From the NCBI GenBank assembly GCA_964386885.1, contig CAYLUO010000001.1, positions 1 to 36,130 of the forward strand: 36,130 nucleotides of DNA, read 5' to 3'. Positions 10,275-35,061 of the stretch are shown here, in pieces. The notes under the pieces are model-generated. The model saw nothing but the letters and a program-made list of their open reading frames with translations. It was not told the origin of the DNA and searched no databases. The position numbers and the translations under genes are program-made. The DNA is from an uncultured archaeon. GTDB lineage: Archaea > Aenigmatarchaeota > Aenigmatarchaeia > CG10238-14. The number at the start of each line of letters is the position of its first letter. Positions within the stretch are counted from its first letter, which is position 1.

Positions 10275-11213
10275 ATGACATCATTAATAAACTTTGCTAA
10301 AAAAATAGATGATCCAATTAAGCCTTTTGGAAAACTTGATGTTCTTTTACTCTATGCAATTGTTGGAGAAAAACTTAAAAAATATCTAAAAGGCAGAGAA
10401 TTAGCAAGTAAGATTTGGTTGCCGTCTGGAAATATTCCATACTTGATCAAAAGAGGATCAAAATTAGAACCACTTTCTGCAGACGAATTAGTAAAAGCAG
10501 TCACTCCTGAATTTTTAGAAATAAGAAGCAAAAAAGAAAATTTATCATTTGCTGAAAAAGATATAACTGATTTACAAAAAAAGATTTGGCAATATTTTTT
10601 TCCAAGAAAATTAGCAGACTTTTTCTATGCAACTAATTGTGAAGGAGTTAATAAATCAATAGATAGAATATTTTTTGATCTAGATAGAGGAAAAGAGATA
10701 TCTCCAAAACAGTCTCAAGAAGCAACAAGACTTTTTGTTGAAACTATTGAACAAGATAAAAAACTAAATGATTTATTAGGAAATGTAAAGCCATTCATTT
10801 ATTGGACTGGAAGTTCTTTTCATGTAATTATTTCTCTTGATAAAAAGGAACCAAACTCATTCTATGGAAAATATTTTCAATATTCAAAACATGATCCAAA
10901 ATCAAGTTTCACAGGAAGATGGTCTGATGAAGTAAACAAACAAACTAAATTTGAGGTCATTGGTGGCCATGATAAAAAACCAAATACAATTAATATAGAT
11001 CCATCACAAACACCATCAGGTAAACTTTGTAGAATACCTTTAGGTTCGTTGCATATGAAAGATGCAAAAACAATAGATGGTATATCAATTCCATTAACAA
11101 AAAAATTACTTGGAAAAAATAATCTTGTTGAAGATTTAAAAAAATATCGAGCAAAATATGTGATAGAAAATTTAACTGAATTAACTAATAGATTACCAAA
11201 AAAATTCAGATAA
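10275..11213 (+). CDS. Archaeo-eukaryotic primase (AEP) superfamily protein, PriS- or LigD-Pol-like
   Basis: 312 aa. Motif I DxD is IFFDLDRG. The motif II analogue is YWTGSSFHVII (SGxxGxH-like). The motif III analogue is NIDPSQTPSGKLCRIPLGSLHMKD (compare D...RLxRxPxSxH). No Cys zinc knuckle is seen. Confidence 0.45.
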   Translation: MTSLINFAKKIDDPIKPFGKLDVLLLYAIVGEKLKKYLKGRELASKIWLPSGNIPYLIKRGSKLEPLSADELVKAVTPEFLEIRSKKENLSFAEKDITDLQKKIWQYFFPRKLADFFYATNCEGVNKSIDRIFFDLDRGKEISPKQSQEATRLFVETIEQDKKLNDLLGNVKPFIYWTGSSFHVIISLDKKEPNSFYGKYFQYSKHDPKSSFTGRWSDEVNKQTKFEVIGGHDKKPNTINIDPSQTPSGKLCRIPLGSLHMKDAKTIDGISIPLTKKLLGKNNLVEDLKKYRAKYVIENLTELTNRLPKKFR

Positions 11214-15110: not shown

Positions 15111-15994
15111 AAAGAATAACCATACTTTCAGGCAAAGGAGGAACAGGAAAAAGCACTATGTGCTCTTCTTTAGCAGTGCTATTATCTCGAACTAAGAAAA
15201 TTGTTGCTGTTGATTGTGATGTTGATGCTCCTGATCTTGGTCTTTGCCTTGGAGTAAAAGATAAAGATTATCAATGGAATCCTGTTGAAACTAGCTATAA
15301 AGCAGAATTAATAGAAAAAAAGTGCATCCATTGTGGAAAGTGCCGAAACATTTGTAAATTTGGTGCTATTTCTTGGGATAACGAAAAAAAACAGCCTATA
15401 TTTAATAAGTTGCTGTGCGAGGGTTGTGGTTCCTGTAAACTGATTTGTCCTGTTAATGCCATTAAGCTTGTTAAAGTTGAGAATGGAAAAATTGGTCAGG
15501 TCAAATCCAAATATGGTTTTAACATAATTACTGGACAGCTAAAAATAGGTGAATCTGGCTCTGGCAAAATTATTATTCTTATTAAAAATAAAGCAGAAGA
15601 AGTTGCTCATAAAGAGAATGCAGAAATCATTCTTATCGATTCTGCAGCAGGTATTGGTTGTCCTGTTATTGCTTCTGTTAATGGTTCTGATTTTGTGATT
15701 GCTGTAACTGAACCAACGCCAAGTGCTTTAAGTGATTTGAAAAAAGGTTTAAAGGTTGTTGAGCATTTCAGGATTCCCTATGGACTTGTTATTAATAAGT
15801 TTGATATAAATGAAGAATTTAGTAAAAAAATTGAAAAATTTGCTAAAGAAAATAATATTCACTTACTTGGAAAAATTCCATATAACAAAGAGTTTGTTAA
15901 TGCTTTGGTTAATTTAACTCCAGCTGTTGTTTGGAATAAAAAGTTTGAGCCTATATTTGAAAAAATAATTAAGAAAATAAAATATTTTGCCTAG
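15107..15994 (+). CDS. MinD/ParA-type P-loop ATPase with an inserted 2x[4Fe-4S] ferredoxin domain (COG1149), paralog
   Basis: 295 aa. Deviant Walker A SGKGGTGKS, ferredoxin motifs CIHCGKCRNIC and CEGCGSCKLICP, and LIDSAAGIGCPV. It overlaps the previous paralog by 4 nt (ATGA). Confidence 0.85.
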   Translation: MKRITILSGKGGTGKSTMCSSLAVLLSRTKKIVAVDCDVDAPDLGLCLGVKDKDYQWNPVETSYKAELIEKKCIHCGKCRNICKFGAISWDNEKKQPIFNKLLCEGCGSCKLICPVNAIKLVKVENGKIGQVKSKYGFNIITGQLKIGESGSGKIIILIKNKAEEVAHKENAEIILIDSAAGIGCPVIASVNGSDFVIAVTEPTPSALSDLKKGLKVVEHFRIPYGLVINKFDINEEFSKKIEKFAKENNIHLLGKIPYNKEFVNALVNLTPAVVWNKKFEPIFEKIIKKIKYFA

Positions 15995-16015
15995 AGAATT
16001 GTATCTTGAAAAAAT

Positions 16016-16711
16016 TTAAGCCTTTTTCTGTATATAAATTTCATTAAAAAATTCTTTTTGTTCAGTTCTAACTTTTCCTCTACTTGCTAAATATAATAAA
16101 GGCAAAAAATTTCCAATTATATTTTCTCTTTCCCATTCGTGTACTATTTTAGAAAATCCAACTTTTTCAGATTTTAATTTTAATAAAAACGAATCTATTT
16201 CTGACATAAGATTATTTATTCTGATTTCAATATCTATCTCATCTGTTGCCAAATTATTTCTTAGTTTTCTTCCTAGTCTATTTCTTATTGTTTCTTTTTT
16301 TTCTTTTACTCTCATTGCTTTGCTTAATGCGTCTACTAATTCATCTAAAGTAACTTTTCTTTTTGGTCTTCTTTTTATAGGACTTTGTAAATCAAGATTA
16401 GCAGTTTGTTCTTTTAGTCTTGCTAGTTCTTCATCAAACTCTTGTCCATAAAATCCTGAACCAGTAGATTTTTCAAACGGAGAAAATATTTCACATTTTA
16501 ATTTCAAAAGTATAGCAGCTACCACTACAACTTTTGCAGGAATTCTAAAATCAAGAAGTTTTAATTTTTCTATATATTTTAAAAAAGAATCAGTAAGTTT
16601 TGTTATATCAATGTCCCAAGGATCAAGATTTTCTAAATTAACAATAGAATAAATCATATCTTCCCATGATTGTTTTTCTATTATCATTTTTAATAAATTT
16701 TCTTCTTGCAT
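16016..16711 (-). CDS. scpA: Segregation and condensation protein A (kleisin)
   Basis: 231 aa. The N-terminal DPWDIDITKLTDSFLKYI and a C-terminal winged-helix-like region resemble ScpA. Its ATG directly follows the smc stop codon. Confidence 0.8.
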   Translation of the reverse strand: MQEENLLKMIIEKQSWEDMIYSIVNLENLDPWDIDITKLTDSFLKYIEKLKLLDFRIPAKVVVVAAILLKLKCEIFSPFEKSTGSGFYGQEFDEELARLKEQTANLDLQSPIKRRPKRKVTLDELVDALSKAMRVKEKKETIRNRLGRKLRNNLATDEIDIEIRINNLMSEIDSFLLKLKSEKVGFSKIVHEWERENIIGNFLPLLYLASRGKVRTEQKEFFNEIYIQKKA

Positions 16712-19210
16712 TTAATTCACCGTTGTATTCGGTAATTCCAATCCTAATATTTTTGATTCTCCATTTTCTAAAGACATACCATATATTCTATTACCTTGTT
16801 TTATTGTGTAATCATTATGTGTAATAACTATAAACTGTTCTTGTTCTGAAAATTTCTTTAGCATATTCGCAACCTTTTTTGAATTTACTTTATCCAATGC
16901 TGCATCAACTTCATCTAATATATAAAATGGAGCTGGCTTATGTTTTTGAACAGCAAACAAAAATGCCAAAGCAGTTAATGCTTTTTCACCACCAGACATT
17001 GCGTCAATATTTAATAGATTTTTTCCACCAGGAGTTGCTTGAATCAATAAACCAGTTTCTATGTCTACTGGATTTTCAAGTTCTATTGATGCACTTCCAC
17101 TTGTCATTTCCCTGAAAACTTCTTTGAAATTTTTATTAATTACTCTTAAACAAGTATAAAATACATCTCTTCTTTTTTCCTCTATTTTATTCATCATATT
17201 TTCAACAGAACTTTTCTCATCACTTATTTTATCATATTTTGATTTTAATTTATCAAACTCTACTTTAAATTCATCATATTCTCCGATTGCTTTCATATTT
17301 ATTAAACCAAAAGAAGTTAATGTATTTTTTATTAATTGCATTTCTTCTTCCATTTTTTCTGGGTCTTCATCTATATATTCTGTTTTTTTATGTTTGTCAA
17401 CTTCAATTTTCCAGTTTGCCATTTCAGCTTCGGTTCTTGCAGCTTTTATATTTAATCTATTAATTCTACTTTGTAATTTCATTCTTTCTTCAAAAAATTC
17501 ATTTCTATTAATTTTCATTTGTTCAAGATCTTCATCAAATTTCTTTCTTTCTTTTTCTAAATCTAAAACTTCTTTACCACTTTCTTCTTCACCTTCTCTT
17601 AACTTATCTAATTTTTGATTTAATTGACCAACTTCTATTCTCATGAAATTAATTTCTTCTTCAAGATCTTTTTTGCTTTGTTCATATGAATCTATTTCAG
17701 CAGAAGAAAATTCAGTTTTTTTCGTATAAAATCCACCAATCATTGCTCCAGATTTTTCAGATAAATCACCATCTAATGTTACCATTCTCATTCTTCCAAT
17801 TCCTAAATCTCTTGCTATACCAAGATTTTCAACAACTACTGTATCTCCAAAAATGTGTTTTATTGCATTAGAATATTTTAAATCATAGTTTATCAAATCA
17901 GATAATAAACCAACAACTCCAGGGGTTTTCAATAATTTTTTTTGTTCAAAAGTTAATTCTCTTTTTCTAATCTTATTTAATGGAAGTAGAGTTGCTCTTC
18001 CAATCTTTTGTGCTTTCAAGAAATTAATACAATCAATTGCAGTCTGAGATCTATCAACAATTATATTTTGTAGTCTAAATCCAGCAGAACTATCAACTGC
18101 AGTTTCAATATTTTTAGGAACTTTAATTAAATCTTTTACTGTTCCAAATATTCCAGATTTTTTCAATCCTAAAATTTCTTTAACACTTCTCTTAAATGAA
18201 AAACCAGTATCTGATATTAACTTCAATTTATCGATTACATTATCCAATCTTTCCATTTCTCTTTGATTGGATTCTATTTTATCCTTATTTCTTATTATTT
18301 TATTTTTTATCTCTTCTATCTCTTCTTTTATTCCAGCTTCTTTTGATTTCATGAATATATTTTCTATCATCCCCTCTCTTTCTTTTTCTAAATTTTCTAT
18401 GTCTTTCTCAAGTTTTGTTATATCTCCTTCAAGCTCTTTTATTTTCTCTTCAGAATTTTCTATTTCTTGTCCAGTTGATTTGAATCTTTCTTCTTCAGTT
18501 GAAAATTTTTTATGGGCAAGAGACGCTTCTAATTTTTCTAATTTAGCAGTTAACTCTTTGAATCTTAAGGCAGTATTTCTATCTGTTTCTAATTGTTGAA
18601 GTCTTTCTAATCTTTCTGTTAAAATAATTTCAACTTCTTTTAATTTTTCTCCGACTTTATAAAGATCTTTTTGCGCCTTTTCTTTTTTATCATTATATTG
18701 GCTTATTCCAGAAATCTCATCTATAATTTCCCTTCTTTCTTGAGGAGTCATTTTTATTACTTGAGTAATATCACCCTGCATGATTATGTTAAATCCATCA
18801 GGATAAATTCTGGCTGATGATAAAAATTCTAGAACTTTTTCTCTTGTTGTAGTTTTTCCATTTATTTTATATGTACTTACTCCTTTTTTGTTGACTTTTC
18901 TTTTTACTGAAATTTCTGGCATATCCATATTAAACAAATTATCAGAATTATCTAGCCATAATGTAACAGATGCATAATCTGATTGAGGAATTGATTTATG
19001 TCCATGATAAATTAATTCATATAGTCTACCGGCCCTCATTGATTTAGTTGATGCACTTCCTGTAACAAAAGAGATTGCATCAAGTATATTGCTCTTTCCA
19101 ACTCCATTTGGTCCGCAGAAAATATTAAATCCTGGAAAGATTGGTATGGATATTTTTTTTCTGAATGATTTAAATCCTTGTACAGTTAGACGGGTTATTC
19201 GTGTCTTCAT
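16712..19210 (-). CDS. smc: Chromosome segregation ATPase SMC (unusually short, about 832 aa)
   Basis: The N-terminal head has QGFKSF and Walker A GPNGVGKSN. The central hinge has GIFGTVKDLI and EKSGAMIGG. The C-terminal head has the signature motif SGGEKALTALAFLFA and Walker B FYILDEVDAALD. The ORF track starts at TTG 19219; the ATG at 19210 gives MKTRITRL. Confidence 0.9.
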   Translation of the reverse strand: MKTRITRLTVQGFKSFRKKISIPIFPGFNIFCGPNGVGKSNILDAISFVTGSASTKSMRAGRLYELIYHGHKSIPQSDYASVTLWLDNSDNLFNMDMPEISVKRKVNKKGVSTYKINGKTTTREKVLEFLSSARIYPDGFNIIMQGDITQVIKMTPQERREIIDEISGISQYNDKKEKAQKDLYKVGEKLKEVEIILTERLERLQQLETDRNTALRFKELTAKLEKLEASLAHKKFSTEEERFKSTGQEIENSEEKIKELEGDITKLEKDIENLEKEREGMIENIFMKSKEAGIKEEIEEIKNKIIRNKDKIESNQREMERLDNVIDKLKLISDTGFSFKRSVKEILGLKKSGIFGTVKDLIKVPKNIETAVDSSAGFRLQNIIVDRSQTAIDCINFLKAQKIGRATLLPLNKIRKRELTFEQKKLLKTPGVVGLLSDLINYDLKYSNAIKHIFGDTVVVENLGIARDLGIGRMRMVTLDGDLSEKSGAMIGGFYTKKTEFSSAEIDSYEQSKKDLEEEINFMRIEVGQLNQKLDKLREGEEESGKEVLDLEKERKKFDEDLEQMKINRNEFFEERMKLQSRINRLNIKAARTEAEMANWKIEVDKHKKTEYIDEDPEKMEEEMQLIKNTLTSFGLINMKAIGEYDEFKVEFDKLKSKYDKISDEKSSVENMMNKIEEKRRDVFYTCLRVINKNFKEVFREMTSGSASIELENPVDIETGLLIQATPGGKNLLNIDAMSGGEKALTALAFLFAVQKHKPAPFYILDEVDAALDKVNSKKVANMLKKFSEQEQFIVITHNDYTIKQGNRIYGMSLENGESKILGLELPNTTVN

Positions 19211-19219
19211 ATAGCTCAA

Positions 19220-19573
19220 CTAGAGGGCGTTGCTTAGTAAGATATAAACAATTAGCCAAACAAGAATATAAGTCATAAAAGTATTTGATAATATCCATAT
19301 TCCAAGCTTTTTTGTTGTTACTTTTTTTGTGATTGGAATCAAAGTGCAAAAATAGATTCCAAAAACCAAAAGGAAAATCATACTAGTGCTTTTTAGATAG
19401 TATGATATATATCCAACAACGCAACCCAATATTGTATATAATATTGCTGCAACCTGTTCTTTTTTCATACTATTTATTTCTTTTACAATTTTAAATGAGT
19501 TTTCTTTATAACCGCTCAAAGTAGTAAACTTGCTTCTATTAACATCCAAATAAGGTTCCAAATTTATAAGCAC
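19220..19573 (-). CDS. Hypothetical small membrane protein upstream of smc
   Basis: Three predicted TM helices lie in the C-terminal 80 aa. The start is uncertain: GTG at 19573, in-frame TTG codons, or ATG at 19468. The stop abuts the smc start region. Confidence 0.4.
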   Translation of the reverse strand: MLINLEPYLDVNRSKFTTLSGYKENSFKIVKEINSMKKEQVAAILYTILGCVVGYISYYLKSTSMIFLLVFGIYFCTLIPITKKVTTKKLGIWILSNTFMTYILVWLIVYILLSNAL

Positions 19574-19652
19574 ATTTTAAATCGAGCTATTTCTTATGAT
19601 AGAAGAAATTGATAGAAAATTTTCAGATTTTTCCAAACAACTCTTTGAGTTT

Positions 19653-19660
19653 GGAGGTGA
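19653..19660 (+). promoter_or_regulatory. Shine-Dalgarno GGAGGTGA ahead of a TTG start
   Basis: A strong SD lies 5 nt upstream of TTG 19666. The downstream ORF has no in-frame ATG at all. Confidence 0.45.
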
Positions 19661-19665
19661 AGAAA

Positions 19666-20010
19666 TTGGGAGGAGAAATATATAAAAATAATAGAGATAA
19701 TGGAATAAAAAAATCTATAACACAATACTGGGGATTTCTTCCTTTTGCCGGAGGATGTCTTGGATCTGGACTAGGCTATATAGGAGGAAACATTGGTGGA
19801 ATAGTTAAAGAAATAGGATCGCAAGTACCATATCTGGTTGGATTAGAAAGTAGTGCATATTCTATTGGAGACAGGATATCAGATGTTGCTGCAGACTCGT
19901 TACATAATGGGTATAGTACTGGGTCACAATTAGCCGCTATAGGATTCTTTGCTGGAGTGATTCTTACTGTAAAATTCAAAAACACGATCAAAGATTTTTT
20001 TAGAAAATAA
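19666..20010 (+). CDS. Hypothetical glycine-zipper membrane protein (operon gene 1)
   Basis: The ORF opens at 19609 (TTG) and has no ATG. TTG 19666 is preceded by GGAGGTGA. It has a Gly-zipper helix (FAGGCLGSGLGYIGGNIGGIV) and a second hydrophobic helix (LAAIGFFAGVILTV). Confidence 0.5.
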   Translation: MGGEIYKNNRDNGIKKSITQYWGFLPFAGGCLGSGLGYIGGNIGGIVKEIGSQVPYLVGLESSAYSIGDRISDVAADSLHNGYSTGSQLAAIGFFAGVILTVKFKNTIKDFFRK

Positions 20011-20026
20011 AATGGAGGTGTAAAAA

Positions 20027-20347
20027 ATGTCAGAATTTGAAACATACGTTCCAAAAAAGAGAGATTTTATCTCTGGTGGTATTGGTTTTCTCTTAGGTAT
20101 TTTTGGTGGTGACAAAATAAAAGGATATGTCAATAAAAAAGTCGATGGAATGTCAGAAAGAGTAGGTGAAAACATTGCAAAAAAATTATATGAACAAAAT
20201 CCAGTTCCTGCACAAGACACACCAATACAACAGGCTGTAGATTATGCAAGATTATGCACAGCACTAGAAAAACTACCAGATAAAATCGGATACAAAGTAG
20301 AAAAAAGTGTTGAGAAAGTAATGAAACAAAAAAAGAAAAAAGAGTGA
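20027..20347 (+). CDS. Hypothetical single-pass glycine-zipper membrane protein (operon gene 2)
   Basis: 106 aa. A GGAGGTG SD lies 6 nt upstream. The helix is ISGGIGFLLGIFGG, followed by YVNKKVD and a Lys-rich tail. Confidence 0.55.
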   Translation: MSEFETYVPKKRDFISGGIGFLLGIFGGDKIKGYVNKKVDGMSERVGENIAKKLYEQNPVPAQDTPIQQAVDYARLCTALEKLPDKIGYKVEKSVEKVMKQKKKKE

Positions 20348-20353
20348 GGCAGA

Positions 20354-20752
20354 ATGGAAGAGAATCCAATTGGTAATGTACTTGGAATTATTTATGGAAT
20401 TAAAAAATCAGCTGAAGCATTCGAAGGTGCTTTCAATAACTATACAAAAAATGCAGATGATGGGCAAGACTATGATATGAAAATCATTGAAGCTGGTGCA
20501 GCAGAACTTTTAAGGAGATATGATATAGACAGTGTTGATAAAATAGAAAATATATTACCAGAAAAATACAAGCAATTTTTCAATATGTTTAGATCTGTTC
20601 CTTGGGACAGAACAGTTGATATAATTTCAATTGCATTAAAAGAAGTTGGAAAAGGCGAAAGCGGAGAATATAATATAACAGAAAATGTCATACAAAATTA
20701 TCTTGGAAAACTTTTGAAAAATAAAATTAAAGATGCAATCAAATTATGGTGA
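20354..20752 (+). CDS. Hypothetical soluble protein (operon gene 3)
   Basis: 132 aa. There is a 6-nt gap from the previous stop and a 7-nt overlap with the next gene. No family recognised. Confidence 0.5.
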   Translation: MEENPIGNVLGIIYGIKKSAEAFEGAFNNYTKNADDGQDYDMKIIEAGAAELLRRYDIDSVDKIENILPEKYKQFFNMFRSVPWDRTVDIISIALKEVGKGESGEYNITENVIQNYLGKLLKNKIKDAIKLW

Positions 20753-21150
20753 TAGACATTGACAACATATTCGAAAAAATCATGCAATATGAATCAAGAT
20801 TGGTTAGTCTAGACATCACAGAAAAAACAGCTGAATATTTTAACGAAAACTCTGAAGATAAAAAACAAAGAATAAAAGAATTATATGAATTGAAAAAGGA
20901 AATTGTTTATGCTGATATAAACAGTTATTACAAAGATAGTTTTCTCAGATCAATAGATCAATACTTGGAACTTTTAGAACCCAAATCTAAAAAAGACAAT
21001 GGATATGCTAATGATTTATTACTTCTTTTGCTAGGAGCTGGATTTGGAATTATTGGCAAGCATTATTTTGATAAAACTGTTGAATCTCTTGAAACAAAAA
21101 TGACAGACGGAATTGTAAGGAGATTTGAAAAAGGGTTGATTCAAAAATGA
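20746..21150 (+). CDS. Hypothetical protein with a C-terminal glycine-zipper helix (operon gene 4)
   Basis: 134 aa. A helical N-terminal region is followed by LLLLLLGAGFGIIG and then YFDKTVE. This is the same arrangement as gene 2. Confidence 0.5.
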   Translation: MVIDIDNIFEKIMQYESRLVSLDITEKTAEYFNENSEDKKQRIKELYELKKEIVYADINSYYKDSFLRSIDQYLELLEPKSKKDNGYANDLLLLLLGAGFGIIGKHYFDKTVESLETKMTDGIVRRFEKGLIQK

Positions 21151-21608
21151 AAAATGGAGATATATTAGAAAATCTTACTGCTGAATTATATAGGAAAATG
21201 GGCTTTGATACAGAACAAGATATAATATTAGAAGGAAAAAGTGGATCTATACATCAAATAGATGTGATAGCAAAGAAAAAATCATGGAGAAAAAAAGAAA
21301 CGTATTTTATTGAATGTAAACTCAGAACGAATAGTTATGTTGGAAAAGCAGATGTGTCAAATTTTCTTTTAGCCTTAGACGACTTAGGACAAAAAGATGG
21401 TTCAGTTGTTACAAATTCACGCTATTCTGAAAATGCTCTAAAAATAGGCGAAAGATATAATTTAAATTTAATAAATGATGAAGAATTGAGAAATGCTTGT
21501 AGAAAATATGGAATTAAATATAATATTTCTGAAGTTAACAATGATCCTGTAGAATATTTAGTTAAAACAGCTTTTGATTTTCTAGGGATTGGTAAACAAA
21601 AGGCTTAA
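21147..21608 (+). CDS. Stand-alone Mrr-type restriction endonuclease domain protein (PD-(D/E)xK)
   Basis: 153 aa. LTAELYRKMGFD...IHQIDVIAKK...YFIECKLRTNSYVGKADV...GSVVTNSRYSENA fits the Mrr_cat layout (D...E-x-K core, then ivT.s.ft..A). It overlaps gene 4 by 4 nt (ATGA). Confidence 0.75.
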   Translation: MKNGDILENLTAELYRKMGFDTEQDIILEGKSGSIHQIDVIAKKKSWRKKETYFIECKLRTNSYVGKADVSNFLLALDDLGQKDGSVVTNSRYSENALKIGERYNLNLINDEELRNACRKYGIKYNISEVNNDPVEYLVKTAFDFLGIGKQKA

Positions 21609-21648
21609 GATAATTTAAATTAAAAAATTATATTAGGAAGATGATTAT

Positions 21649-21963
21649 ATGCCTTTTTCGAATGCATTGAATGATGCTATGGATCAAGAACTTTTTTTAG
21701 ATTTACCTCCACTTGGATTTGAACGACCAGAAAATAAAAGATTAACACCTGGCACTGTTTTGACGCCCAGAGAAGAAATGGAAATATTATCTCAAAGACA
21801 GTCATATGATTTAAATCTAGGAGATGGAAAGGTCATTGGATATATTTGCATTAAAAATGGAAAAATTAATCTTTATTCACCAAATTCTCTTAGACTCAAA
21901 TATGAACGTTTAAAGAATTCAATAATAAATTCAATAAAAAAATATATCCCAAATCCTTGCTAA
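21649..21963 (+). CDS. Hypothetical protein (operon gene 6)
   Basis: 104 aa, 40 nt downstream of the nuclease gene, ending 8 nt from the tRNA 3' end. No family recognised. Confidence 0.4.
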   Translation: MPFSNALNDAMDQELFLDLPPLGFERPENKRLTPGTVLTPREEMEILSQRQSYDLNLGDGKVIGYICIKNGKINLYSPNSLRLKYERLKNSIINSIKKYIPNPC

Positions 21964-21971
21964 AATCAAAA

Positions 21972-22046
21972 TAGCGAGGAGTGGATTTGAACCACCGGCC
22001 TCAGGGTTATGAGCCCTGCGAGCACTCCAGGCTGCTCCACCTCGCT
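21972..22046 (-). tRNA. tRNA-Met (CAU), initiator-like
   Basis: The reverse complement folds as a 75-nt cloverleaf. The acceptor is AGCGAGG/CCTCGCT with an A1:U72 pair. The D arm is GAGC/GCTC. The anticodon arm is CAGGG-CTCATAA-CCCTG, with three G:C pairs next to the loop. The T arm is GGTGG-TTCAAAT-CCACT, and the discriminator is A. No CCA is encoded. Confidence 0.9.
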
Positions 22047-22086
22047 TTTCTAACTAAAATACGATATTATTATATGTATTTATAAA

Positions 22087-23127
22087 TTATAGCTTTTCAA
22101 ACAATTTTATAAAAAATTTATTTCCTCTTGTATTTTCTCTAGAATTCTTAATTTCTATCAATTTCAGATCTTCTAAATGTTTAATATATTTTCTAAAAGT
22201 AGGTTGACTTATTTCTCCAAACATATCATTATATTTTTCATTCAGTTCTATTGATGTAACATCTTTCTCATTTTTCAAAATATCTAATATATTTTTTTCA
22301 GCATCATCTAATTTTGATTTTATTATTTTTTCTTTAACATTTCCAGAAATATTTTTCAAAATTTCTTTTACATGTTTGATTCTTAATTTTTCGTCATCTT
22401 CAGCTAATCTAGCAGATTTTCTTAAAAGTTCCAACCCAGCTCTAACATCACCTTTATTCGTGGCATAATTAGCAACTAAAAGAGCAACACCATTCTCAGC
22501 AAAAGAGAACGCATCTTTGATTCTTTCAGATATAATATCTTTCATTTCTTCCAAGCTATAAGACTTAAATTCTATTTCTTCTATATCCAAACTACTTTTG
22601 ATCCTTGGTTCAACATTAATAAAAATATCATGATGGTTTGATATAAAAACTAATCCAATTGGAGTGTCAATATATTGGTTTAATCTTAATAAATCATAAA
22701 GTGCTTTCTGGTCTTTTTTTACTAATTGGTCAACTTCATCTAAACATATTATAAGCCCTTTGTTTTTCTTCAGAAGTTCTATTAATTTTTCAATTATCTC
22801 ATCTTTTGAAAATCCACGCCTTGGCATTGGATATCCTAAACTTATGATTATTTTCGTTATAAGTGCAGCAGATGTGTTATAATCCCAAGTGTTGATGTAT
22901 ATTGTTTTTATTTTATCAGAAAATTCTTCAAATTGCCTGAAAACATATTTTATACAAGCAGTCTTGCCTATTCCTGAACCACCATATATAAACATATTCT
23001 GAGGAGTTCTATCAGATGCAGCAGGCTTTAGATTATCTGCTATCTGTTGTATTTGTGTTTCTCTGTGTGGCAATATCTCTGGCAAATATTCTGGAGATAA
23101 TACTTTTTCATTTTTTATTAGTTCCAT
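22087..23127 (-). CDS. cdc6: Orc1/Cdc6 replication initiation protein
   Basis: 346 aa. AAA+ Walker A is GGSGIGKTA and Walker B is LIICLDEVD. It has the EYLPEILPHRE N-terminal motif and a C-terminal winged helix. Confidence 0.93.
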   Translation of the reverse strand: MELIKNEKVLSPEYLPEILPHRETQIQQIADNLKPAASDRTPQNMFIYGGSGIGKTACIKYVFRQFEEFSDKIKTIYINTWDYNTSAALITKIIISLGYPMPRRGFSKDEIIEKLIELLKKNKGLIICLDEVDQLVKKDQKALYDLLRLNQYIDTPIGLVFISNHHDIFINVEPRIKSSLDIEEIEFKSYSLEEMKDIISERIKDAFSFAENGVALLVANYATNKGDVRAGLELLRKSARLAEDDEKLRIKHVKEILKNISGNVKEKIIKSKLDDAEKNILDILKNEKDVTSIELNEKYNDMFGEISQPTFRKYIKHLEDLKLIEIKNSRENTRGNKFFIKLFEKL

Positions 23128-23166
23128 AGTTAGATATTATTAATTCAAAAATAAATTTTAAGCATT

Positions 23167-23517
23167 ATGATAGTAAAGAATAGAACAAAAAATACAGATA
23201 TAAAAAATGTTATTTTAGCAGATTCATTTCTATCAAAATCCAAAGGGCTTATGTTCAAGAAAAAAGGAAGATTATTATTAAAATTCTGGATGCAAGATTA
23301 TCATAAAATATGGATGTTATTTATGAAATTTCCAATTGATTTAGTTTTCATAGACAAAAATAAGAAAATAGTTGATATAATAGAAAATGCTAAACCAATG
23401 TCATTTGATCCTAAAACATGGAAATTATATTATCCAAAGAAAAAATGTAAATATATTTTAGAAGTTGAAGCTGGTTTATCAAAGAAATTTTCTATTGGAA
23501 ATCAATTAAGTTTCTAA
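23167..23517 (+). CDS. DUF192 (COG1430) domain protein
   Basis: 116 aa. ...ADSFLSKSKGLMFKK...FPIDLVFIDKNKKIV...YILEVEAG fits the DUF192 pattern. Confidence 0.7.
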   Translation: MIVKNRTKNTDIKNVILADSFLSKSKGLMFKKKGRLLLKFWMQDYHKIWMLFMKFPIDLVFIDKNKKIVDIIENAKPMSFDPKTWKLYYPKKKCKYILEVEAGLSKKFSIGNQLSF

Positions 23518-25784: not shown

Positions 25785-25895
25785 TGGGACGACCCGGATT
25801 TGAACCGGGGACCACTAGTTTTTACGCCAAGTTGCCTTATAAGACTAGCGCTTTCAGCACGCGAAAACGTTCTAACCTGGCTGAGCTACCGTCCC
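25785..25895 (-). tRNA. tRNA-Ile (UAU) with two introns (about 19 nt in the D arm, 17 nt at canonical 37/38)
   Basis: The 111-nt reverse complement gives a perfect 75-nt cloverleaf only after two segments are removed. These are ACGTTTTCGCGTGCTGAAA (25852..25870, restoring D stem GCTC/GAGC) and AGGCAACTTGGCGTAAA (25821..25837). The acceptor is GGGACGG/TCGTCCC. The anticodon arm is CTAGT-CTTATAA-ACTAG. The T arm is CCCGG-TTCAAAT-CCGGG, and the discriminator is A. Confidence 0.75.
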
Positions 25896-29062: not shown

Positions 29063-29587
29063 ATGGGAAATAAAGATGAAGTAGAAATAAAAGAAAGCGA
29101 TTATGAATTAATCCCAATGTCCCCAATAAGACGACTAGAAAAACGACTTGAAAGGGTAGAGGATTTATCAGTCCCAGAATCAGGATCAGTTTTCAAAGAT
29201 GTAGTTGAAATAGTAAGAATGAATCAATTGATAGTTGATCAATTAGCAAAATCAAATGATGCACTAAGAATAGAAATATCAAAATTACCAGCAAAGATTG
29301 ATGAATTGGTCATGAACTTAAAAGAACTAATAAATTTTGTAAAAGCATCTGGTCATCAAGAACAAAGACAAATGTCAATGGAATCAATGGCACCACTTTT
29401 AAATAAACTTGATGAATTAGTAAAAGCAAACAAAGGAGCATCAGAAAAAAATGATGCTATGCTAGAATTATTAGATACAGTAAGTAAAAGATTAAGACCA
29501 GCAAGACCACCAGTAGCGCTTCCAGGAATGCCACCAAGACCACCACAAACGAGACCTATACAAAGGCCAATTAAAAAACCATTTTAG
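29063..29587 (+). CDS. Hypothetical coiled-coil protein with a proline-rich C-terminus
   Basis: 174 aa. An AGGTGA SD lies upstream. The protein is helical and heptad-like, and its tail is RPARPPVALPGMPPRPPQTRPIQRPIKKPF. Its stop is 12 nt from the first pilin gene. Confidence 0.55.
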   Translation: MGNKDEVEIKESDYELIPMSPIRRLEKRLERVEDLSVPESGSVFKDVVEIVRMNQLIVDQLAKSNDALRIEISKLPAKIDELVMNLKELINFVKASGHQEQRQMSMESMAPLLNKLDELVKANKGASEKNDAMLELLDTVSKRLRPARPPVALPGMPPRPPQTRPIQRPIKKPF

Positions 29588-29599
29588 GTGATATAAAAA

Positions 29600-29998
29600 A
29601 TGAAAGGAATATCTGCAATTATAGCAACTATACTTTTACTACTTATAACTATAGCTCTGGCAGGAACAGCATATATGTATGTATCTGGAATGTTAACTGG
29701 TAAAATACAAAAAACAATAACAGTATTATCTGCTACATGTTCTCAAGATAAAGAAACATTAACATTAGTAATTTCAAATGATGGAACTGCTGATATAAAT
29801 TCAACATTAGATCTTAGATGGACAGTAGATGATGGCACTGGAGCTCCGGCAGCACCAACATTCGAATGTACCCCAGAAACTATAACACCACATAGCAGTT
29901 CTGTTTGTAGCTATACAAAAACTGCTGGATATAGTGGCACAATTCAAATAGTAGTTGTAGGACCAAGCAATTCAGTACCTCAAACAGTTTATTGTTAA
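29600..29998 (+). CDS. Archaeal type IV pilin (class III signal peptide), candidate major pilin
   Basis: 132 aa. MKG|ISAIIATILLLLITIALAG is a textbook archaeal prepilin N-terminus (KG cleavage site plus hydrophobic helix). An AGGTGA SD lies upstream. The beta-rich body has 4 Cys. Confidence 0.8.
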   Translation: MKGISAIIATILLLLITIALAGTAYMYVSGMLTGKIQKTITVLSATCSQDKETLTLVISNDGTADINSTLDLRWTVDDGTGAPAAPTFECTPETITPHSSSVCSYTKTAGYSGTIQIVVVGPSNSVPQTVYC

Positions 29999-30011
29999 GA
30001 GGTGTCTTAGT

Positions 30012-30596
30012 ATGAAAGGACAACAACAAGTAGTATCAGTAATAATTATTATAGGCTTAATTATAGGCGCAACAGCAACTGTTCTTCCTTGGGCAAACAC
30101 AATGATCCAAAAAAGAAAAGATATGAAAAGCTTGGATGATGTTTATTATTTTTTTCAAAATATGGATGAAACAATAAGAACTATTGCTAAAAATGGAGGG
30201 GAAGAGTCATTATCACTAGAGGTCCCTGGAACATTAACTGTTTCTCCTGATGATAATACAATTGTTTTCAATTTCGAGAGTAAAGTCTCTAATATAGCAG
30301 AAGGAGACTGGATTCCACTAAATACACCAAATCTAAATGAAACAGGAACTTTAGGTTTGGATACGCCATCAGTTATATTTGGAAAAGCAGAGCAAGATGG
30401 TAATACAATAAAAATATGGTATAAATTATGGTATAGACAATTGAAAGATCCATCAACTAATAATCTTTATAAGATTTCTTTAAAAACAACAGACGAAACA
30501 GTAAAGACAACAAACACAGGATTTATGAGAATACAAAGGCTAGGAACAACTACATCACAAGATTTAACAATTACAGAAATTAATATTATAATTTAA
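30012..30596 (+). CDS. Pilin-like protein with a class III signal peptide
   Basis: 194 aa. The N-terminus is MKG|QQQVVSVIIIIGLIIGATATVL. A GAGGTG SD lies upstream. Confidence 0.7.
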   Translation: MKGQQQVVSVIIIIGLIIGATATVLPWANTMIQKRKDMKSLDDVYYFFQNMDETIRTIAKNGGEESLSLEVPGTLTVSPDDNTIVFNFESKVSNIAEGDWIPLNTPNLNETGTLGLDTPSVIFGKAEQDGNTIKIWYKLWYRQLKDPSTNNLYKISLKTTDETVKTTNTGFMRIQRLGTTTSQDLTITEINIII

Positions 30597-31021
30597 TGAG
30601 CAAAGGTCAAAGTTTTATAATAGAATTTATTCTTTTCTTTGGTATTTCTTTTAGTCTGTTTGCTACAATAAGTTATTACTTTTATAATCAGAATTCATAC
30701 TTGAATGAGCAAATAGGAGAATCAACAACAGATTTAATAAACAAACAAATTTCTACAGATATAGTTATGGCAAATAGCTGCAAGAACTGTGATACGATTC
30801 TTATAAGAGATAAAATTCCATCACAAATAGGTGGATATTACTATAAAATAAAAGCAGAAGATGGTTTAAACACAACTCTATATTCTAGAAAACTTTTTTC
30901 TAATCAAGGAACAATATTTAATTTAAATGAAACCTTTAGTTTAATAGGAGAAACAAAAAGTGAAAATAAAAGAATAGAAATCAAAATTAATAATATAGAT
31001 AATATAATTGAGGTAAAATAA
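30596..31021 (+). CDS. Pilin-like protein with a class III signal peptide
   Basis: 141 aa. The N-terminus is MSKG|QSFIIEFILFFGISFSLF. There is a 1-nt overlap with the previous stop. Confidence 0.65.
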   Translation: MSKGQSFIIEFILFFGISFSLFATISYYFYNQNSYLNEQIGESTTDLINKQISTDIVMANSCKNCDTILIRDKIPSQIGGYYYKIKAEDGLNTTLYSRKLFSNQGTIFNLNETFSLIGETKSENKRIEIKINNIDNIIEVK

Positions 31022-32764
31022 ATGTCTGGGGTATCTGTTTTCAGAAGTTTAGTTAGAGGTTATCAAAATCTCTCGAAAAAAGAAAAAAAGGAAACACAAA
31101 CAAGTGTTACTGGTCCTTTAGAAGTTTTTGGAACAGTGGATATAAGAGAACATGAAAAGAAGAAAAAAATAGAAAAAGAAAAATTAGAAGGAATAGAAAT
31201 TCCAGATTTTAGAACAAAAAGAGTTGGCCTACTAGGAATAAAACAAGAAGAAGAAAAAGAATATTTTCAAGCAACATATCCTTTAATGCCAACAAAACCA
31301 AAAAAAAATGAAAAAATTTTATCTTATACTAAAATCTTTTGGGATTCACAAAAAAATTGTTATAGATATAATTTAGTACAACCAGAAATCTCTCCTAGAT
31401 TAAAAAAACTTTTTAATAGATTAAAAGAATTAATAGAAGAAAAATTAGATGTGGATTTAACAAGATTGAAAAAAGGAGAAGCAAAAGATTATTTAAAAAA
31501 ACAAATTTTTGAATTATTAGATTATTTTGGAATAAAACTAACTGAAAACGAAAAACAAATTTTAGATTATTATATCAACAGAGACTTTTTGGGATTGGGT
31601 GCAATAGATCCTTTAATGCATGATTCTCGAATTGAAGAAATAAGTTGTGATGGTATAAATATTCCAATTTATGTTTTTCATAGAGATCCTAAACTAGGTT
31701 CAATTCAAACAAACATTTCTTTTAACAATCCAGAAGAATTAGATGATTATTTGGTTCGTCTGGCTCAAATATGTGGGCAATCAATATCAGTAACAGATCC
31801 TTTATTGAGTGGAACTTTACCAGACGGATCCAGAATACAAGGAACTTTGGCAACAGATATAGCAAGAAGAGGATCTAATTTTACAATTAGAAAATTCTCT
31901 GCAGAACCATTTACGCCAGCCCATCTTCTAAACTTTAATACAATAGATATCAAGACATTAGCATTTTTATGGATGACAATAGATTATGGATGTAGTGCTT
32001 TAATAGCTGGTGGATCAGCAACAGGTAAAACATCTTTTCTAAATGTATTATCTTTATTTATAAAACCAGACATGAAAATCGTTTCAATAGAAGATACAGC
32101 TGAATTAAGACTACCACATCCACATTGGGTCCCACAACTTGCACGAGTTCCAATATCAACAGAAAAAGGTAAAAGAAAAGGAGAAGTAGATCTGTTTGAT
32201 TTATTAAAAGAAAGTATCAGACAAAGACCAGATTACATTATAGTAGGTGAAGTTAGAGGTAAAGAAGCATATGTCTTGTTCCAGCAAATAGCAACTGGTC
32301 ATCCTTCTTTAGCAACTATTCATGCAGATACAATGGAAAAATTAGGCAGTAGATTAATCAGTCCTCCAATATCATTACCAACAAGTTTATTGGAAAGTTT
32401 AGATTTGATAGTGTTTCTAACCAAGCAAAGATATAGAGGCCAATATGTTAGAAGAGTTAAAGATGTTTTTGAAATAATAGGATTTGATATTAAAGAAAAA
32501 GTTCCTATAACAAACAAAACATTTGAATGGGATACGACAACAGATAAAATAAAAATCTCAAATAAAAGTATTATTCTTCAGAAAATAGTTAAAAAAACTG
32601 GTCTTAAAGAAAAAGAAATTATAGAAGAAATGAAAAGAAGAATGTTAGTTTTATATTGGATTCAGCAAAGAAATATGACAAATTACAAAGATGTTAGTCA
32701 AATATTAAATTTATATTATACTTATCCAGAAAAAGTTTTGGATATAATTACTGGTGAGATTTAG
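31022..32764 (+). CDS. Type IV filament assembly ATPase (FlaI/ArlI/PilB-like, GspE/VirB11 superfamily)
   Basis: 580 aa. The N-terminal YRYNLVQPEIS matches the archaeal YxVxEP motif. Walker A is GGSATGKTS and Walker B is DYIIVGEVRGKEA. TGHPSLATIHAD is the His box. Confidence 0.92.
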   Translation: MSGVSVFRSLVRGYQNLSKKEKKETQTSVTGPLEVFGTVDIREHEKKKKIEKEKLEGIEIPDFRTKRVGLLGIKQEEEKEYFQATYPLMPTKPKKNEKILSYTKIFWDSQKNCYRYNLVQPEISPRLKKLFNRLKELIEEKLDVDLTRLKKGEAKDYLKKQIFELLDYFGIKLTENEKQILDYYINRDFLGLGAIDPLMHDSRIEEISCDGINIPIYVFHRDPKLGSIQTNISFNNPEELDDYLVRLAQICGQSISVTDPLLSGTLPDGSRIQGTLATDIARRGSNFTIRKFSAEPFTPAHLLNFNTIDIKTLAFLWMTIDYGCSALIAGGSATGKTSFLNVLSLFIKPDMKIVSIEDTAELRLPHPHWVPQLARVPISTEKGKRKGEVDLFDLLKESIRQRPDYIIVGEVRGKEAYVLFQQIATGHPSLATIHADTMEKLGSRLISPPISLPTSLLESLDLIVFLTKQRYRGQYVRRVKDVFEIIGFDIKEKVPITNKTFEWDTTTDKIKISNKSIILQKIVKKTGLKEKEIIEEMKRRMLVLYWIQQRNMTNYKDVSQILNLYYTYPEKVLDIITGEI

Positions 32765-33633
32765 TGTTTTTTTATGACAGAATAGCCATGCGCTATTTAG
32801 GCAAATATATAGAACCTTACTTAGACTATTTTTCTGGCTTGAAAAAAGATTTAAAAAAAAGTGGAATGAGAACAACACTTTTGGAATATTTATCATCATC
32901 ATTATTAACATGTATTGTTTTATTTGTTCTTGAACTTCCATTGTTTGCTTTTATTTTTTCACTTGTTGGATTAGGTGCATTATTTAGTTTATTTATGTCA
33001 GTTGTTGTTGCAATTGGAATTTGTGTCGTTTTTTTTCTAGCTTTTGTAAATTATCCAAAATTTATAATTCGTGATAAAGCAAGATCAATAGAAAATACAT
33101 TACCATTTGCTGGAATATATTTATCAACTATAGCAAGTTCACAATTACCACCACATAAGATATTTGAAATATTTTCTAAGTTTAAAGAACATGGAGAAAT
33201 TTCAAAAGAAGCACAGAGAATTGTTGCTGACATGAAAGCATTTGGTTTGAATATATATGAAAGTTTAGAAAAAGCTGTAAACAGAACTCCATCAAAAGAA
33301 TTAAAAGAATTATTTTGGTCTATGCTTTCAACTTTAAAAAGTGGTGGAAATTTAGATGCATATTTGACAGAAAAATCAAAAACATTTCTTGACAATTACA
33401 GAAGAAAATTAACAGAATTTTCTCATTCACTTTCAATTTATCTTGAAATTTATTTAACTGCTTTAGTCTTGGGTGCAATATTCTTTACTATATTAACATC
33501 TTTAATGTCTGGATTCGGGGGAGTGGGTGCAAATGTAGTTTTTGTTCAATTCTTCCTAATATTCTTTTTCATACCACTTATATCGGCAGCGTTTATAATT
33601 TTAATAAAAATGAGTTCACCAAGTGCAGAATAA
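32764..33633 (+). CDS. Type IV filament platform protein, one T2SSF domain (FlaJ/TadB-TadC-like), part 1
   Basis: 289 aa with TM helices. The cytoplasmic T2SSF-type domain reads ENTLPFAGIYLSTIASS...LSTLKSGGNLDAYL. The GTG start overlaps the ATPase TAG by 1 nt; an alternative ATG lies at 32788. Confidence 0.8.
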   Translation: MFFYDRIAMRYLGKYIEPYLDYFSGLKKDLKKSGMRTTLLEYLSSSLLTCIVLFVLELPLFAFIFSLVGLGALFSLFMSVVVAIGICVVFFLAFVNYPKFIIRDKARSIENTLPFAGIYLSTIASSQLPPHKIFEIFSKFKEHGEISKEAQRIVADMKAFGLNIYESLEKAVNRTPSKELKELFWSMLSTLKSGGNLDAYLTEKSKTFLDNYRRKLTEFSHSLSIYLEIYLTALVLGAIFFTILTSLMSGFGGVGANVVFVQFFLIFFFIPLISAAFIILIKMSSPSAE

Positions 33634-34595
33634 TGAGAAAAATAGAATTAGCAAAAGAAAGAAAAATTTTATTAATAACTCTAGCAATATCAGCAATTTT
33701 AATTCTTATAGGAATAATAGCTGGAGATACTGGTGTTTTAGGAAGTGCAATATTTATTTCTGTATTTTTAGTAGCAGCACCTCAATTGATTTTGAATTAT
33801 ATCGCATTCAAAAATATTAGAGAAATGGAATATGTGTTTCCACATTTTTTAAGAGATTTAGTAGAAATAACAAGAGCTGGTGTTCCATTGCATAAAGGAA
33901 TTATATTCACAAGTAAAACAAATTATGGACCTTTGTCACCAGAAATAAAAAAAATGGCAAACCAATTAACATGGAATGTAAATATACTGACTGTTCTTGA
34001 ACAATTCAGAAAAAGAATGAGAAGAAGCAAGACACTAACAAAAGTAGTAAGAGTTATGATAGAAACATACAAGTCTGGTGGATCAGTTGACAATACTTTA
34101 AATTCTTTATCAACAACTTTGGCAACAATTCAGGATACACAAAAAGAAAGAAAGGCTATGCTTAATCAATATGTAATCGCAATGTATGCAATTTGTTTTA
34201 TTTTTATTGGAATAATAGTTGCAATAAACAGGTTAATGGTTCCAATATTTCAATCAATGGGAGCTCAGGGTGGTGGAATTGGTGGAGGACCTTTAGCAAG
34301 TGTAGTTTCAAATCCATGTTCTATTTGTATTGGTAGAGGAGGATTAGGATGTGCTCCATGTTCTATTTATTCTGGCATATGTTCTGTGTTTGGTTCTGCA
34401 ACAACAGGAATAGCATGTTATTACATGGCATTATTCTTTTCAATGGCTGTTATTCAGGCAATCACTGGTGGCTTAGTTGCTGGGCAGATTGGTGAGGGTT
34501 CTGTGCGCGCTGGATTTAAACATAGCCTAATTATGTTAACTGTTGTTATTGGTGCATTTTTCATACTTGTGAGATTAAACTTCATAGGTGTATAA
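33633..34595 (+). CDS. Type IV filament platform protein, one T2SSF domain, part 2, with a Cys/Gly-rich insert
   Basis: 320 aa. The T2SSF-type domain reads FPHFLRDLVEITRAGVPL...ETYKSGGSVDNTL. There is a TAATG overlap with part 1. The insert is GAQGGGIGGGP...CSICIGRGGLGCAPCSIYSGIC. Confidence 0.8.
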   Translation: MRKIELAKERKILLITLAISAILILIGIIAGDTGVLGSAIFISVFLVAAPQLILNYIAFKNIREMEYVFPHFLRDLVEITRAGVPLHKGIIFTSKTNYGPLSPEIKKMANQLTWNVNILTVLEQFRKRMRRSKTLTKVVRVMIETYKSGGSVDNTLNSLSTTLATIQDTQKERKAMLNQYVIAMYAICFIFIGIIVAINRLMVPIFQSMGAQGGGIGGGPLASVVSNPCSICIGRGGLGCAPCSIYSGICSVFGSATTGIACYYMALFFSMAVIQAITGGLVAGQIGEGSVRAGFKHSLIMLTVVIGAFFILVRLNFIGV

Positions 34596-35057: not shown

Positions 35058-35061
35058 TAAA

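Follow-up and report, generated by a model that had tools for sequence, protein, structure and literature searches.

What might a tightly packed run of small genes do for an archaeon when only a single one of them encodes a protein of a recognizable family? This question is raised by a locus from an uncultured member of the Aenigmatarchaeota, contained in a stretch of 36,130 nucleotides (nt; contig CAYLUO010000001.1) that we refer to as the window. DPANN archaea, to which this lineage belongs, are uncultured and genome-reduced episymbionts, most of whose lineage-specific genes are unexplained. Six co-directional open reading frames (ORFs), here named g1 to g6, make up the locus, the fifth of them encoding a nuclease of the Mrr type. 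An original prediction, made from the letters of this DNA, had taken all six for one operon on accessory DNA next to a tRNA gene. Our analysis corrects this initial reading in that the locus represents neither a tRNA-linked island nor a six-gene unit; instead, g1 to g5 are a real and undescribed module. We put it at somewhat below an even chance that this module is a nuclease system so far without description, coupled to the membrane and present lineage-wide in Aenigmatarchaeota-like DPANN archaea. In such a system, four novel small proteins, including a hypervariable surface subunit, would form a membrane sensor or scaffold by which a minimal Mrr enzyme is licensed, and its task would be a fixed antiviral one or the handling of host DNA.

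Organization of the locus

All six ORFs are located on the forward strand, at 19609-20010 (g1), 20027-20347 (g2, 106 amino acids [aa]), 20354-20752 (g3, 132 aa), 20746-21150 (g4, 134 aa, or 133 aa if translation starts at GTG 20749), 21147-21608 (g5, 153 aa) and 21649-21963 (g6, 104 aa). These positions, and the spacings of 16, 6, -7, -4 and 40 nt between the ORFs, are the same as those given in the original prediction. In the ORF list, the g1 frame is open from TTG 19609. The true start of g1 is most likely TTG 19666, which yields a protein of 114 aa (19666-20010): this codon sits 6 nt past a GGAGGTG Shine-Dalgarno sequence (19653-19659, forward strand), an identical GGAGGTG precedes g2, and two independent gene callers, those of NCBI and Logan, also start g1 there. 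Upstream of the revised start lies a divergent intergenic region of 92 nt (19574-19665), within which we infer the promoter to reside.

Because of the gaps of 16, 6, -7 and -4 nt and the Shine-Dalgarno motifs, g1 to g5 are shown to have the layout of one co-transcribed and partly translationally coupled operon. The tight coupling that had been claimed for the locus thus stands; its extension to six genes does not, since g6 is missing or replaced in relatives, as described below.

The Mrr-type nuclease g5

The identification of g5 as a stand-alone Mrr-type nuclease of the PD-(D/E)xK fold is borne out by its match to the Mrr_cat family (PF04471; E 4.2e-15, 56.3 bits versus a cut-off of 21), which covers profile positions 9-114 of 115. 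Even a distant orthologue (h5, from contig L021; the contigs of relatives carry our own labels) reaches 33.1 bits to the same family. Residues E8, D39, E56 and K58, the latter two forming the E56-x-K58 motif, are invariant in seven orthologues down to 41% identity, and the catalytic D and ExK residues are also kept in the orthologues from L021, L023 and L025. Judged by these residues, g5 is predicted to be catalytically intact. A conserved C-terminal tail (C118..Y121...Y137..D144..G149) follows the catalytic domain. The latter begins at residue 7, and no N-terminal winged-helix DNA-binding domain and no other Pfam domain over threshold were found in g5. Since it is without a DNA-binding domain of its own, g5 plausibly depends on partners for its localisation or activation.

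The closest characterized relatives are the Mrr and type IV restriction endonucleases, such as those of E. coli and Haloferax, with which g5 shares the Mrr_cat domain and an intact E...D...ExK signature. Full-length Mrr differs from g5 by its N-terminal winged-helix domain, whereas g5 consists of the catalytic domain alone, and, unlike in these enzymes, the g5 gene always follows those for four small lineage-specific proteins. The sole solved structure found by a sequence profile of the g5 orthologues is that of AF1548 from Archaeoglobus fulgidus (PDB 1Y88; E 8.3e-7). AF1548 is likewise a small and uncharacterised archaeal protein of the Mrr fold, but the similarity is distant and limited to the nuclease core. 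In PADLOC, g5 matches the nuclease domain of ZorD (E 2.7e-6) and mREase_IV, the model for type IV restriction endonucleases (E 0.02).

Recurrence of the module in related archaea

Whether the linkage of the nuclease with small hydrophobic proteins recurs in other genomes had been set as a check beforehand, and the linkage was found across several lineages. In a local scan with hidden Markov models, the order g1-g2-g3-g4-Mrr was present in all related contigs of sufficient length. The module spans at least four lineages with GC contents of 28-41%, in four different and mostly housekeeping contexts. Near-identical strains (L001, L003, L004) share the context of the window. A second species (L005 = L014 = L020), whose SMC is 82%, Orc1 86%, g1 to g4 46-56% and g5 71% identical to those of the window, has its module at the same ScpA-SMC...tRNA-Orc1 locus. 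One of its contigs, L020, corresponds to GenBank JAFCEW010000012.1 of 'Candidatus Aenigmatarchaeota archaeon Meg22_1214_Bin_346', the one metagenome-assembled genome found in a genome scan with g5 orthologues; a scan of genome contigs with a six-sequence subset of the g3 alignment found nothing. By this relative, the window belongs to the Aenigmatarchaeota or to their vicinity. In a third lineage (L010, L011 and L012, the last of which ends inside g4), the module is located behind a gene for an EamA transporter, without SMC, and g3 and g5 are 39% and 58% identical to their counterparts in the window. A short contig, L013, carries g3-g4-Mrr, with the Mrr protein 41% identical.

More divergent are the contigs L021 to L024 (GC 0.37-0.41), whose five-gene run encodes proteins of 101/114, 105, 90, 118 and 132/143 aa. 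The fourth of these genes is g4 (E 1e-29) and the fifth the Mrr orthologue (E 1e-18 to 1e-22), while the third resembles the N-terminal part of g3 (E 1e-6), the first is weakly g1-like and the second matches g2 by position and architecture only. An expanded version of the module with three extra small genes is found in L025 (GC 0.40), with a TrmB gene about 2.7 kb away. The taxonomy of L010 and of L021 to L025 rests on their archaeal gene content. More distant Mrr genes, on L016 to L019, are without g1 to g4, so that only this Mrr subfamily shows the linkage.

The five-gene order is kept across lineages in which g3 is 22-39% identical. Collectively, these comparisons show g1 to g5 to have the hallmarks of a module with five components that is conserved within a group of DPANN archaea, and a search of the literature for this module in Aenigmatarchaeota or DPANN returned nothing relevant. 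What had been anonymous ORFs can thus be described as a defined module with an Mrr nuclease as its output, a conserved order, a first gene that is hypervariable and a nuclease core that shows allele swaps.

Chromosomal inheritance and the variable slot beside the tRNA gene

The neighbourhood of a tRNA gene had suggested accessory DNA, although neither an integrase nor an att repeat had been noticed. Neither was found in our analysis, and the suggestion itself is not supported: there is no compositional shift either, and the region is collinear in relatives. No gene for an integrase or recombinase lies between smc and orc1 or among the annotated ORFs of the window. Of the repeats listed for 15500-23500 (20 direct families out of at least 60 and 25 inverted pairs out of 241), none involves the tRNA gene (21972-22046), as an att repeat of its 3' end would. 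A comparison of base composition, also called for in advance, gave GC contents of 0.28-0.35 and a GC3 (GC at third codon positions) of 0.17 for the module versus 0.25-0.33 and 0.14 in the remainder of the window.

L004, L005 and L008 all contain g1 to g5 in a collinear arrangement, with variation at g6 only, and the alignment of the window with L005 produces a single blastn high-scoring segment pair that runs through SMC and the module at 79% identity. The surroundings are those of a housekeeping region, with genes for CTP synthase, diphthamide and hypusine synthesis, ArgRS, ScpA-SMC, Orc1, LysRS and the thermosome in the window. In L021 and L023, the module is embedded among genes for S6e, eIF2-gamma, TrmB, PheRS and a further aminoacyl-tRNA synthetase (aaRS) of class Ib, with which the Mrr gene overlaps at its downstream end; the same neighbours are recorded for L021 to L024 as a group. 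Scans of IMG/VR with patterns for g5, g3 and g6 found nothing in viral contigs. Taken together, the conserved gene neighbourhoods show the pattern of a module inherited with the chromosome and not on a mobile island.

The slot between g5 and the 3' end of the tRNA gene (21609-21971) is variable; the module is not. This slot contains g6 in the window and nothing in L005, where the tRNA gene follows about 55 nt after g5 (10463-10518), and in L008 (1323-2870) it is filled by an unrelated ORF for a coiled-coil-like protein of 116 aa. In the same contig, a gene for a 346-aa protein of the CBAH/AAT family is inserted between the tRNA gene and orc1. Among 1.84 billion representative proteins, g6 has no homolog but itself (a cluster of one), the only other copies being 100% identical, and it is supported as a gene by the length of its ORF alone. 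As judged from these searches, g6 is to be regarded as an unrelated, strain-specific orphan outside the module.

In principle, a virus or plasmid that had integrated here and then decayed could have left such genes behind, or the ORFs could be neighbours by chance without any joint function. The small proteins are without annotated homologs, the locus is near the 3' end of a tRNA gene, and g6 and its counterparts are indeed strain-specific. We nevertheless regard this explanation as very improbable. The order of five genes is kept across lineages in which g3 has diverged to 22-39% identity, the genes are under purifying selection, and neither the negative IMG/VR scans for g5, g3 and g6 nor the searches of PHROGs, which gave no match to g1 to g4 or g6, nor the lack of an integrase and att repeat speak for such an origin.

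Selection and allele replacement

The ratio of non-synonymous to synonymous substitution rates (dN/dS) between orthologues amounts to 0.2-0.5 for g1 to g5, as compared with 0.11-0.16 for SMC and Orc1. With this ratio and their conservation in other contigs, g1 to g5 can be taken as real genes that appear to be under purifying but relaxed selection. Between the window and the near-identical strain L004, g1 proteins share 59% identity, as against about 92% in the flanks and 85-95% for g2 to g5, and the synonymous divergence (dS) of g1 reaches 0.76 versus 0.1-0.23 for g2 to g5. An independent lineage behaves similarly, in that L021 and L023 share only 33% identity in the g1-like protein h1, as compared with 59-91% for its neighbours; for the housekeeping genes nearby, the values are 72-91%, except for the aaRS with 44%. 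By these comparisons, g1 is hypervariable in two independent lineages.

Sliding comparisons of nucleotide identity reveal sharp dips. Against a background of about 90-99%, the dip is confined to 19700-19999, within g1, when the window is compared with L004, and to 21200-21499, in the core of g5, when it is compared with L008. Such dips fit a replacement of alleles by recombination, or alternatively a localised diversifying selection. The hypervariability of g1 and the apparent swaps of g1 and g5 alleles are suggestive of a conflict system, short of proof.

The same data bear on the question of whether the nuclease fold serves something other than restriction. Proteins with the PD-(D/E)xK fold also act as resolvases and repair nucleases, and g5 might accordingly act as a nuclease on particular structures or on RNA, or tether DNA to the membrane in connection with chromosome segregation; such a role would be in keeping with the location of the module, which in the window, L004, L005 and L008 adjoins the genes for ScpA-SMC and Orc1/Cdc6. 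We judge a role of this kind to be quite improbable, as the adjacency to SMC and Orc1 is lost in L010, L021 to L024 and L025, the best family match of g5 is to Mrr_cat and not to Hjc, NucS or EndA, and an allele replacement in the g5 core between near-identical strains would be unusual for a housekeeping nuclease.

The small proteins g1 to g4

None of the proteins encoded by g1 to g4 and g6 belongs to a described family, as had been expected: searches of Pfam, NCBIfam, PADLOC and PHROGs remained without a match, or in the case of PHROGs without a meaningful one. An exhaustive HMMER search of the 1.84 billion representative proteins recovered 39 proteins in total, all of them 95-177 aa long, with seven homologs of g1, three of g2, 12 of g3 and 16 of g4 in addition to g6 itself; a profile search added eight more distant relatives of g4.

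Two Gly-rich hydrophobic segments are conserved in the g1 protein, at about residues 23-47 and 86-103. They flank an acidic loop of about 40 aa, and the N and C termini of the protein are basic. In the family alignment, G29, G35, P55, G82, G93, G97 and T101 are invariant. This architecture suggests a hairpin of two transmembrane (TM) segments with both termini inside, and at least g1 is thus a convincing candidate for a membrane protein. The g2 protein has a short hydrophobic stretch near its N terminus (residues 14-29); the part behind it consists of a charged helical region and a tail rich in Lys. GYxN...E..GE..A..Y and P-D...Y.VEK.V.K are its conserved motifs.

The g3 protein is soluble and all-alpha, with the conserved motif LP.KYRP...PWD..VD..S..LKE.GKDE.GEY and invariant residues P69, G104 and Y106 in the family alignment. 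Its AlphaFold2 model comprises six helices at modest confidence (predicted local distance difference test [pLDDT] 69), and a Foldseek search against PDB gave nothing significant, that is, nothing below an E of 0.2. The AlphaFold2 model of g4 contains a four-helix N-terminal domain (residues 5-78) with a pLDDT above 90; past this domain, the model shows one long helix of low confidence. By sequence, a hydrophobic helix with GxxxG is located at about residues 90-104, and the tail behind it is amphipathic and basic. L67 and G97 are invariant in the g4 family and G101 is nearly so. No structural match to g4 emerged from Foldseek searches of PDB and BFVD (nothing below an E of 0.2), and the sequence profiles of g3 and g4 found chance-level matches only in PDB. 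Residues 13-57 of g2 align with residues 91-131 of g4 (hhalign probability 82%, E 1e-5), and in each of the aligned segments a hydrophobic helix with small residues is followed by an amphipathic helix. Paralogy of the two segments is one possible explanation, and similar composition is another. A paralogy of g3 and g4 was considered and rejected (hhalign probability 0.3%).

Glycine zippers had been assigned to g1, g2 and g4. The stretches in question are present in all three proteins, and their glycines are conserved in g1 (G29, G35, G41 as well as G93, G97) and, as GxxxG, in g4 (G97, G101); the pattern of g2 is not conserved. At E values up to 1, no Pfam glycine-zipper family matched g1, g2 or g4 or their distant counterparts.

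It was from these helices that the original prediction had developed its model, in which oligomeric glycine-zipper pores depolarise the membrane and the Mrr protein serves as a second toxic effector, the whole being an abortive-infection or toxin module on tRNA-linked accessory DNA. Several observations would suit this proposal, namely the conservation of Gly-rich hydrophobic helices in g1 and of GxxxG in g4, the intact nuclease residues of g5, and the fast evolution and allele swaps; of its accessory part, what remains is that g6, and g6 only, occupies a variable slot by the tRNA gene. We consider the model improbable nonetheless. The locus is not accessory DNA, as it is devoid of an integrase, an att repeat and a compositional shift, is syntenic in relatives and stands among core genes elsewhere. 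In addition, the glycine pattern of g2 is not kept, g2 and g4 have very short hydrophobic spans of about 15-16 residues, there is no match to Pfam glycine-zipper families, holins, PADLOC or PHROG models, and no candidate for a sensor or an antitoxin is evident.

A possible membrane-coupled nuclease system

The features described above lend themselves to a model in which g1, a Gly-rich hairpin of two TM segments with an exposed loop, would form a small membrane-embedded scaffold together with g2 and g4. The latter two would contribute their possibly homologous hydrophobic GxxxG helix and amphipathic helix, and g3 and the four-helix N-terminal domain of g4 might act as adaptors. This membrane scaffold or sensor would hold and localise the g5 nuclease and gate or license its activity. 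Once licensed, g5 would cleave foreign DNA at the membrane in a restriction-like manner, and the hypervariable g1 would represent the surface-exposed component that is driven by an arms race. We infer the interaction among the five proteins from their gene linkage, and the presumed membrane roles from sequence features. That a membrane-anchored complex controls an Mrr nuclease and acts as a restriction-like defence at the membrane is a proposal that we make tentatively, as something possible rather than probable, although among the functions considered here we rank it first.

Several points weigh against this model. There is no support from homology for any function of g1 to g4, and PADLOC yields no system, only the nuclease domain of g5. 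The hydrophobic spans of g2 and g4, with about 15-16 residues between charged residues, leave their insertion into the membrane uncertain, and the similarity of the two proteins could be compositional. Furthermore, the module resides in core, syntenic, housekeeping neighbourhoods, without a defence island and without any other defence gene nearby, and this context makes it atypical for defence systems.

Among known systems, Zorya, with its ZorAB membrane complex and ZorC/ZorD nuclease effector, follows a shared logic, as membrane components are genetically coupled to an Mrr-like nuclease. However, the alignment of g5 with the ZorD model, which has 1071 positions, is restricted to 950-1066, corresponding to the C-terminal nuclease of ZorD, and the module lacks ZorA (MotA-like), ZorB (MotB/OmpA-like), ZorC and the SNF2 helicase domain. 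At E values up to 1, g1 to g4 and g6 have no PADLOC match, and no MotA or OmpA family of Pfam was matched. The module proteins are also 4- to 10-fold smaller, and their setting is the core genome instead of a defence island. We therefore view the resemblance to Zorya as conceptual, by analogy, and not as homologous. In PADLOC-DB v2 as a whole, no signature proteins of a described system were matched, with domain-level matches of g5 as the only outcome. A likeness also exists to defence or abortive-infection modules that pair a small membrane effector with a nuclease, such as Kiwa or the two-TM effectors of CBASS and retrons: in both cases, an enzyme of the conflict type is coupled with small TM proteins, and evolution is rapid. 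Our module differs from these in that no homology was detected, no sensor or signal-generating enzyme is present, and the locus is syntenic and stable.

By analogy with competence, the five proteins could instead form a DNA-processing complex of a genome-reduced episymbiont, in which DNA of the host or the environment would be taken up or received at the membrane and fragmented by g5 at its inner face, for nucleotide salvage or recombination. DPANN archaea are generally held to rely on their hosts for many metabolites, and an exposed hypervariable loop of g1 could reflect host specificity. The stable inheritance of the module in housekeeping neighbourhoods of at least four lineages, and its co-orientation and overlap with an aaRS gene in L021 to L024, would also be in line with such a function. 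Competence nucleases that work at the membrane with small partner proteins are known from B. subtilis (NucA/Nin) and S. pneumoniae (EndA). These enzymes, an analogue for the proposed complex, differ from g5 in their folds and families, and g5 has neither a signal peptide nor a TM segment. The module is without a DNA channel, translocase, ATPase or DNA-binding protein; its small proteins are unlike ComEC, ComEA and Ced components, for which no family matches were obtained. Genes for CTP synthase and GMP synthase in the window indicate that nucleotide interconversion is present, and the dN/dS values of the module exceed those of housekeeping genes. On balance, we regard this explanation as unlikely.

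If the proposed defence function is true, the module would be an unusual system, assembled from minimal parts and with a fixed place in the core genome. Should the handling of incoming DNA be its function instead, it would bear on how these symbionts exploit their hosts.

Neighbouring genes and further observations

The module had been described as lying between smc and the gene for the initiator tRNA. The tRNA side of this description is correct: a tRNA-Met(CAT) gene is located on the reverse strand (21972-22046), with its 3' end toward g6, and the A1:U72 pair and the GGG/CCC anticodon stem, with three G:C pairs, are the signature of an archaeal initiator. On the smc side, another gene intervenes before g1 (19220-19573, reverse strand; identified as an ORF and by hydropathy), which encodes a 117-aa protein with three TM segments. 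It abuts the start codon of smc and is kept with smc in L005; its similarity to EMC6_arch is below threshold (E 0.002, 19 bits versus a cut-off of 26.7). We considered this gene as a sixth member of the module and rejected it, as it moves with smc and is not beside the module in L010, L021 and L025. The SMC protein itself (16712-19219, reverse strand) has only 835 aa (832 aa in relatives) but contains both the head and the hinge, with SMC_N at residues 7-820 and the hinge at 354-471. A typical SMC protein has about 1150-1200 aa, and by this measure the arms would be much shorter coiled coils.

In the window, g2 and g3 share one frame, with only TGA GGC AGA between them (20345-20356). A gene call of the same DNA by the Joint Genome Institute (JGI) under genetic code 4, in which TGA specifies Trp, accordingly contains a fused g2-g3 protein of 242 aa (P0008; L003 3308-4036), and calling with this code also yields read-through tails on g3 and g4 (P0010). 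We do not consider a fusion or readthrough of g2 and g3 to be real. P0008 has W at the TGA positions, is untranslatable under table 11 and hence an artefact or a coincidence, and g2 and g3 occupy different frames in L005 and L010.

Three observations concern the surroundings of the module in its more distant relatives. A gene for a TrmB-family regulator is found beside or near the module in L021 (7434-8234), L023 (6983-7786) and L025 (6120-6971), and not in the window; this proximity in two divergent lineages may be a coincidence or a regulatory link. The class-Ib aaRS genes that overlap the Mrr gene in L021 (10163-11371) and L023 (10750-11835) encode proteins that are only 44% identical, which suggests either that an aaRS was replaced or that different paralogues (Tyr versus Trp) occupy the same position. 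Between TrmB and the first module gene, L023 (7834-8670) and L024 (120-956) contain a Lys-rich ORF of 278 aa that is absent from L021. Motifs of the LAGLIDADG type can be discerned in it by eye (FLGGFVSEGN, RFSGDGWV), with no Pfam match on record, hinting at a candidate insertion of the homing-endonuclease type.

Two further features of the window lie downstream of the module. Just upstream of a rhomboid gene, a second tRNA gene (25785-25895, reverse strand) is detected by Rfam (43.8 bits) and not reported by ARAGORN; it is 111 nt long and probably contains an intron. At 29063-36003 on the forward strand, a co-directional cluster begins with several unannotated small ORFs and continues with genes for an ATPase of the T2SSE type (31022-32764) and a membrane protein of the T2SSF type (33633-34595). 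By its predicted products, this cluster looks like an assembly locus for a type IV pilus or an archaellum-like structure.

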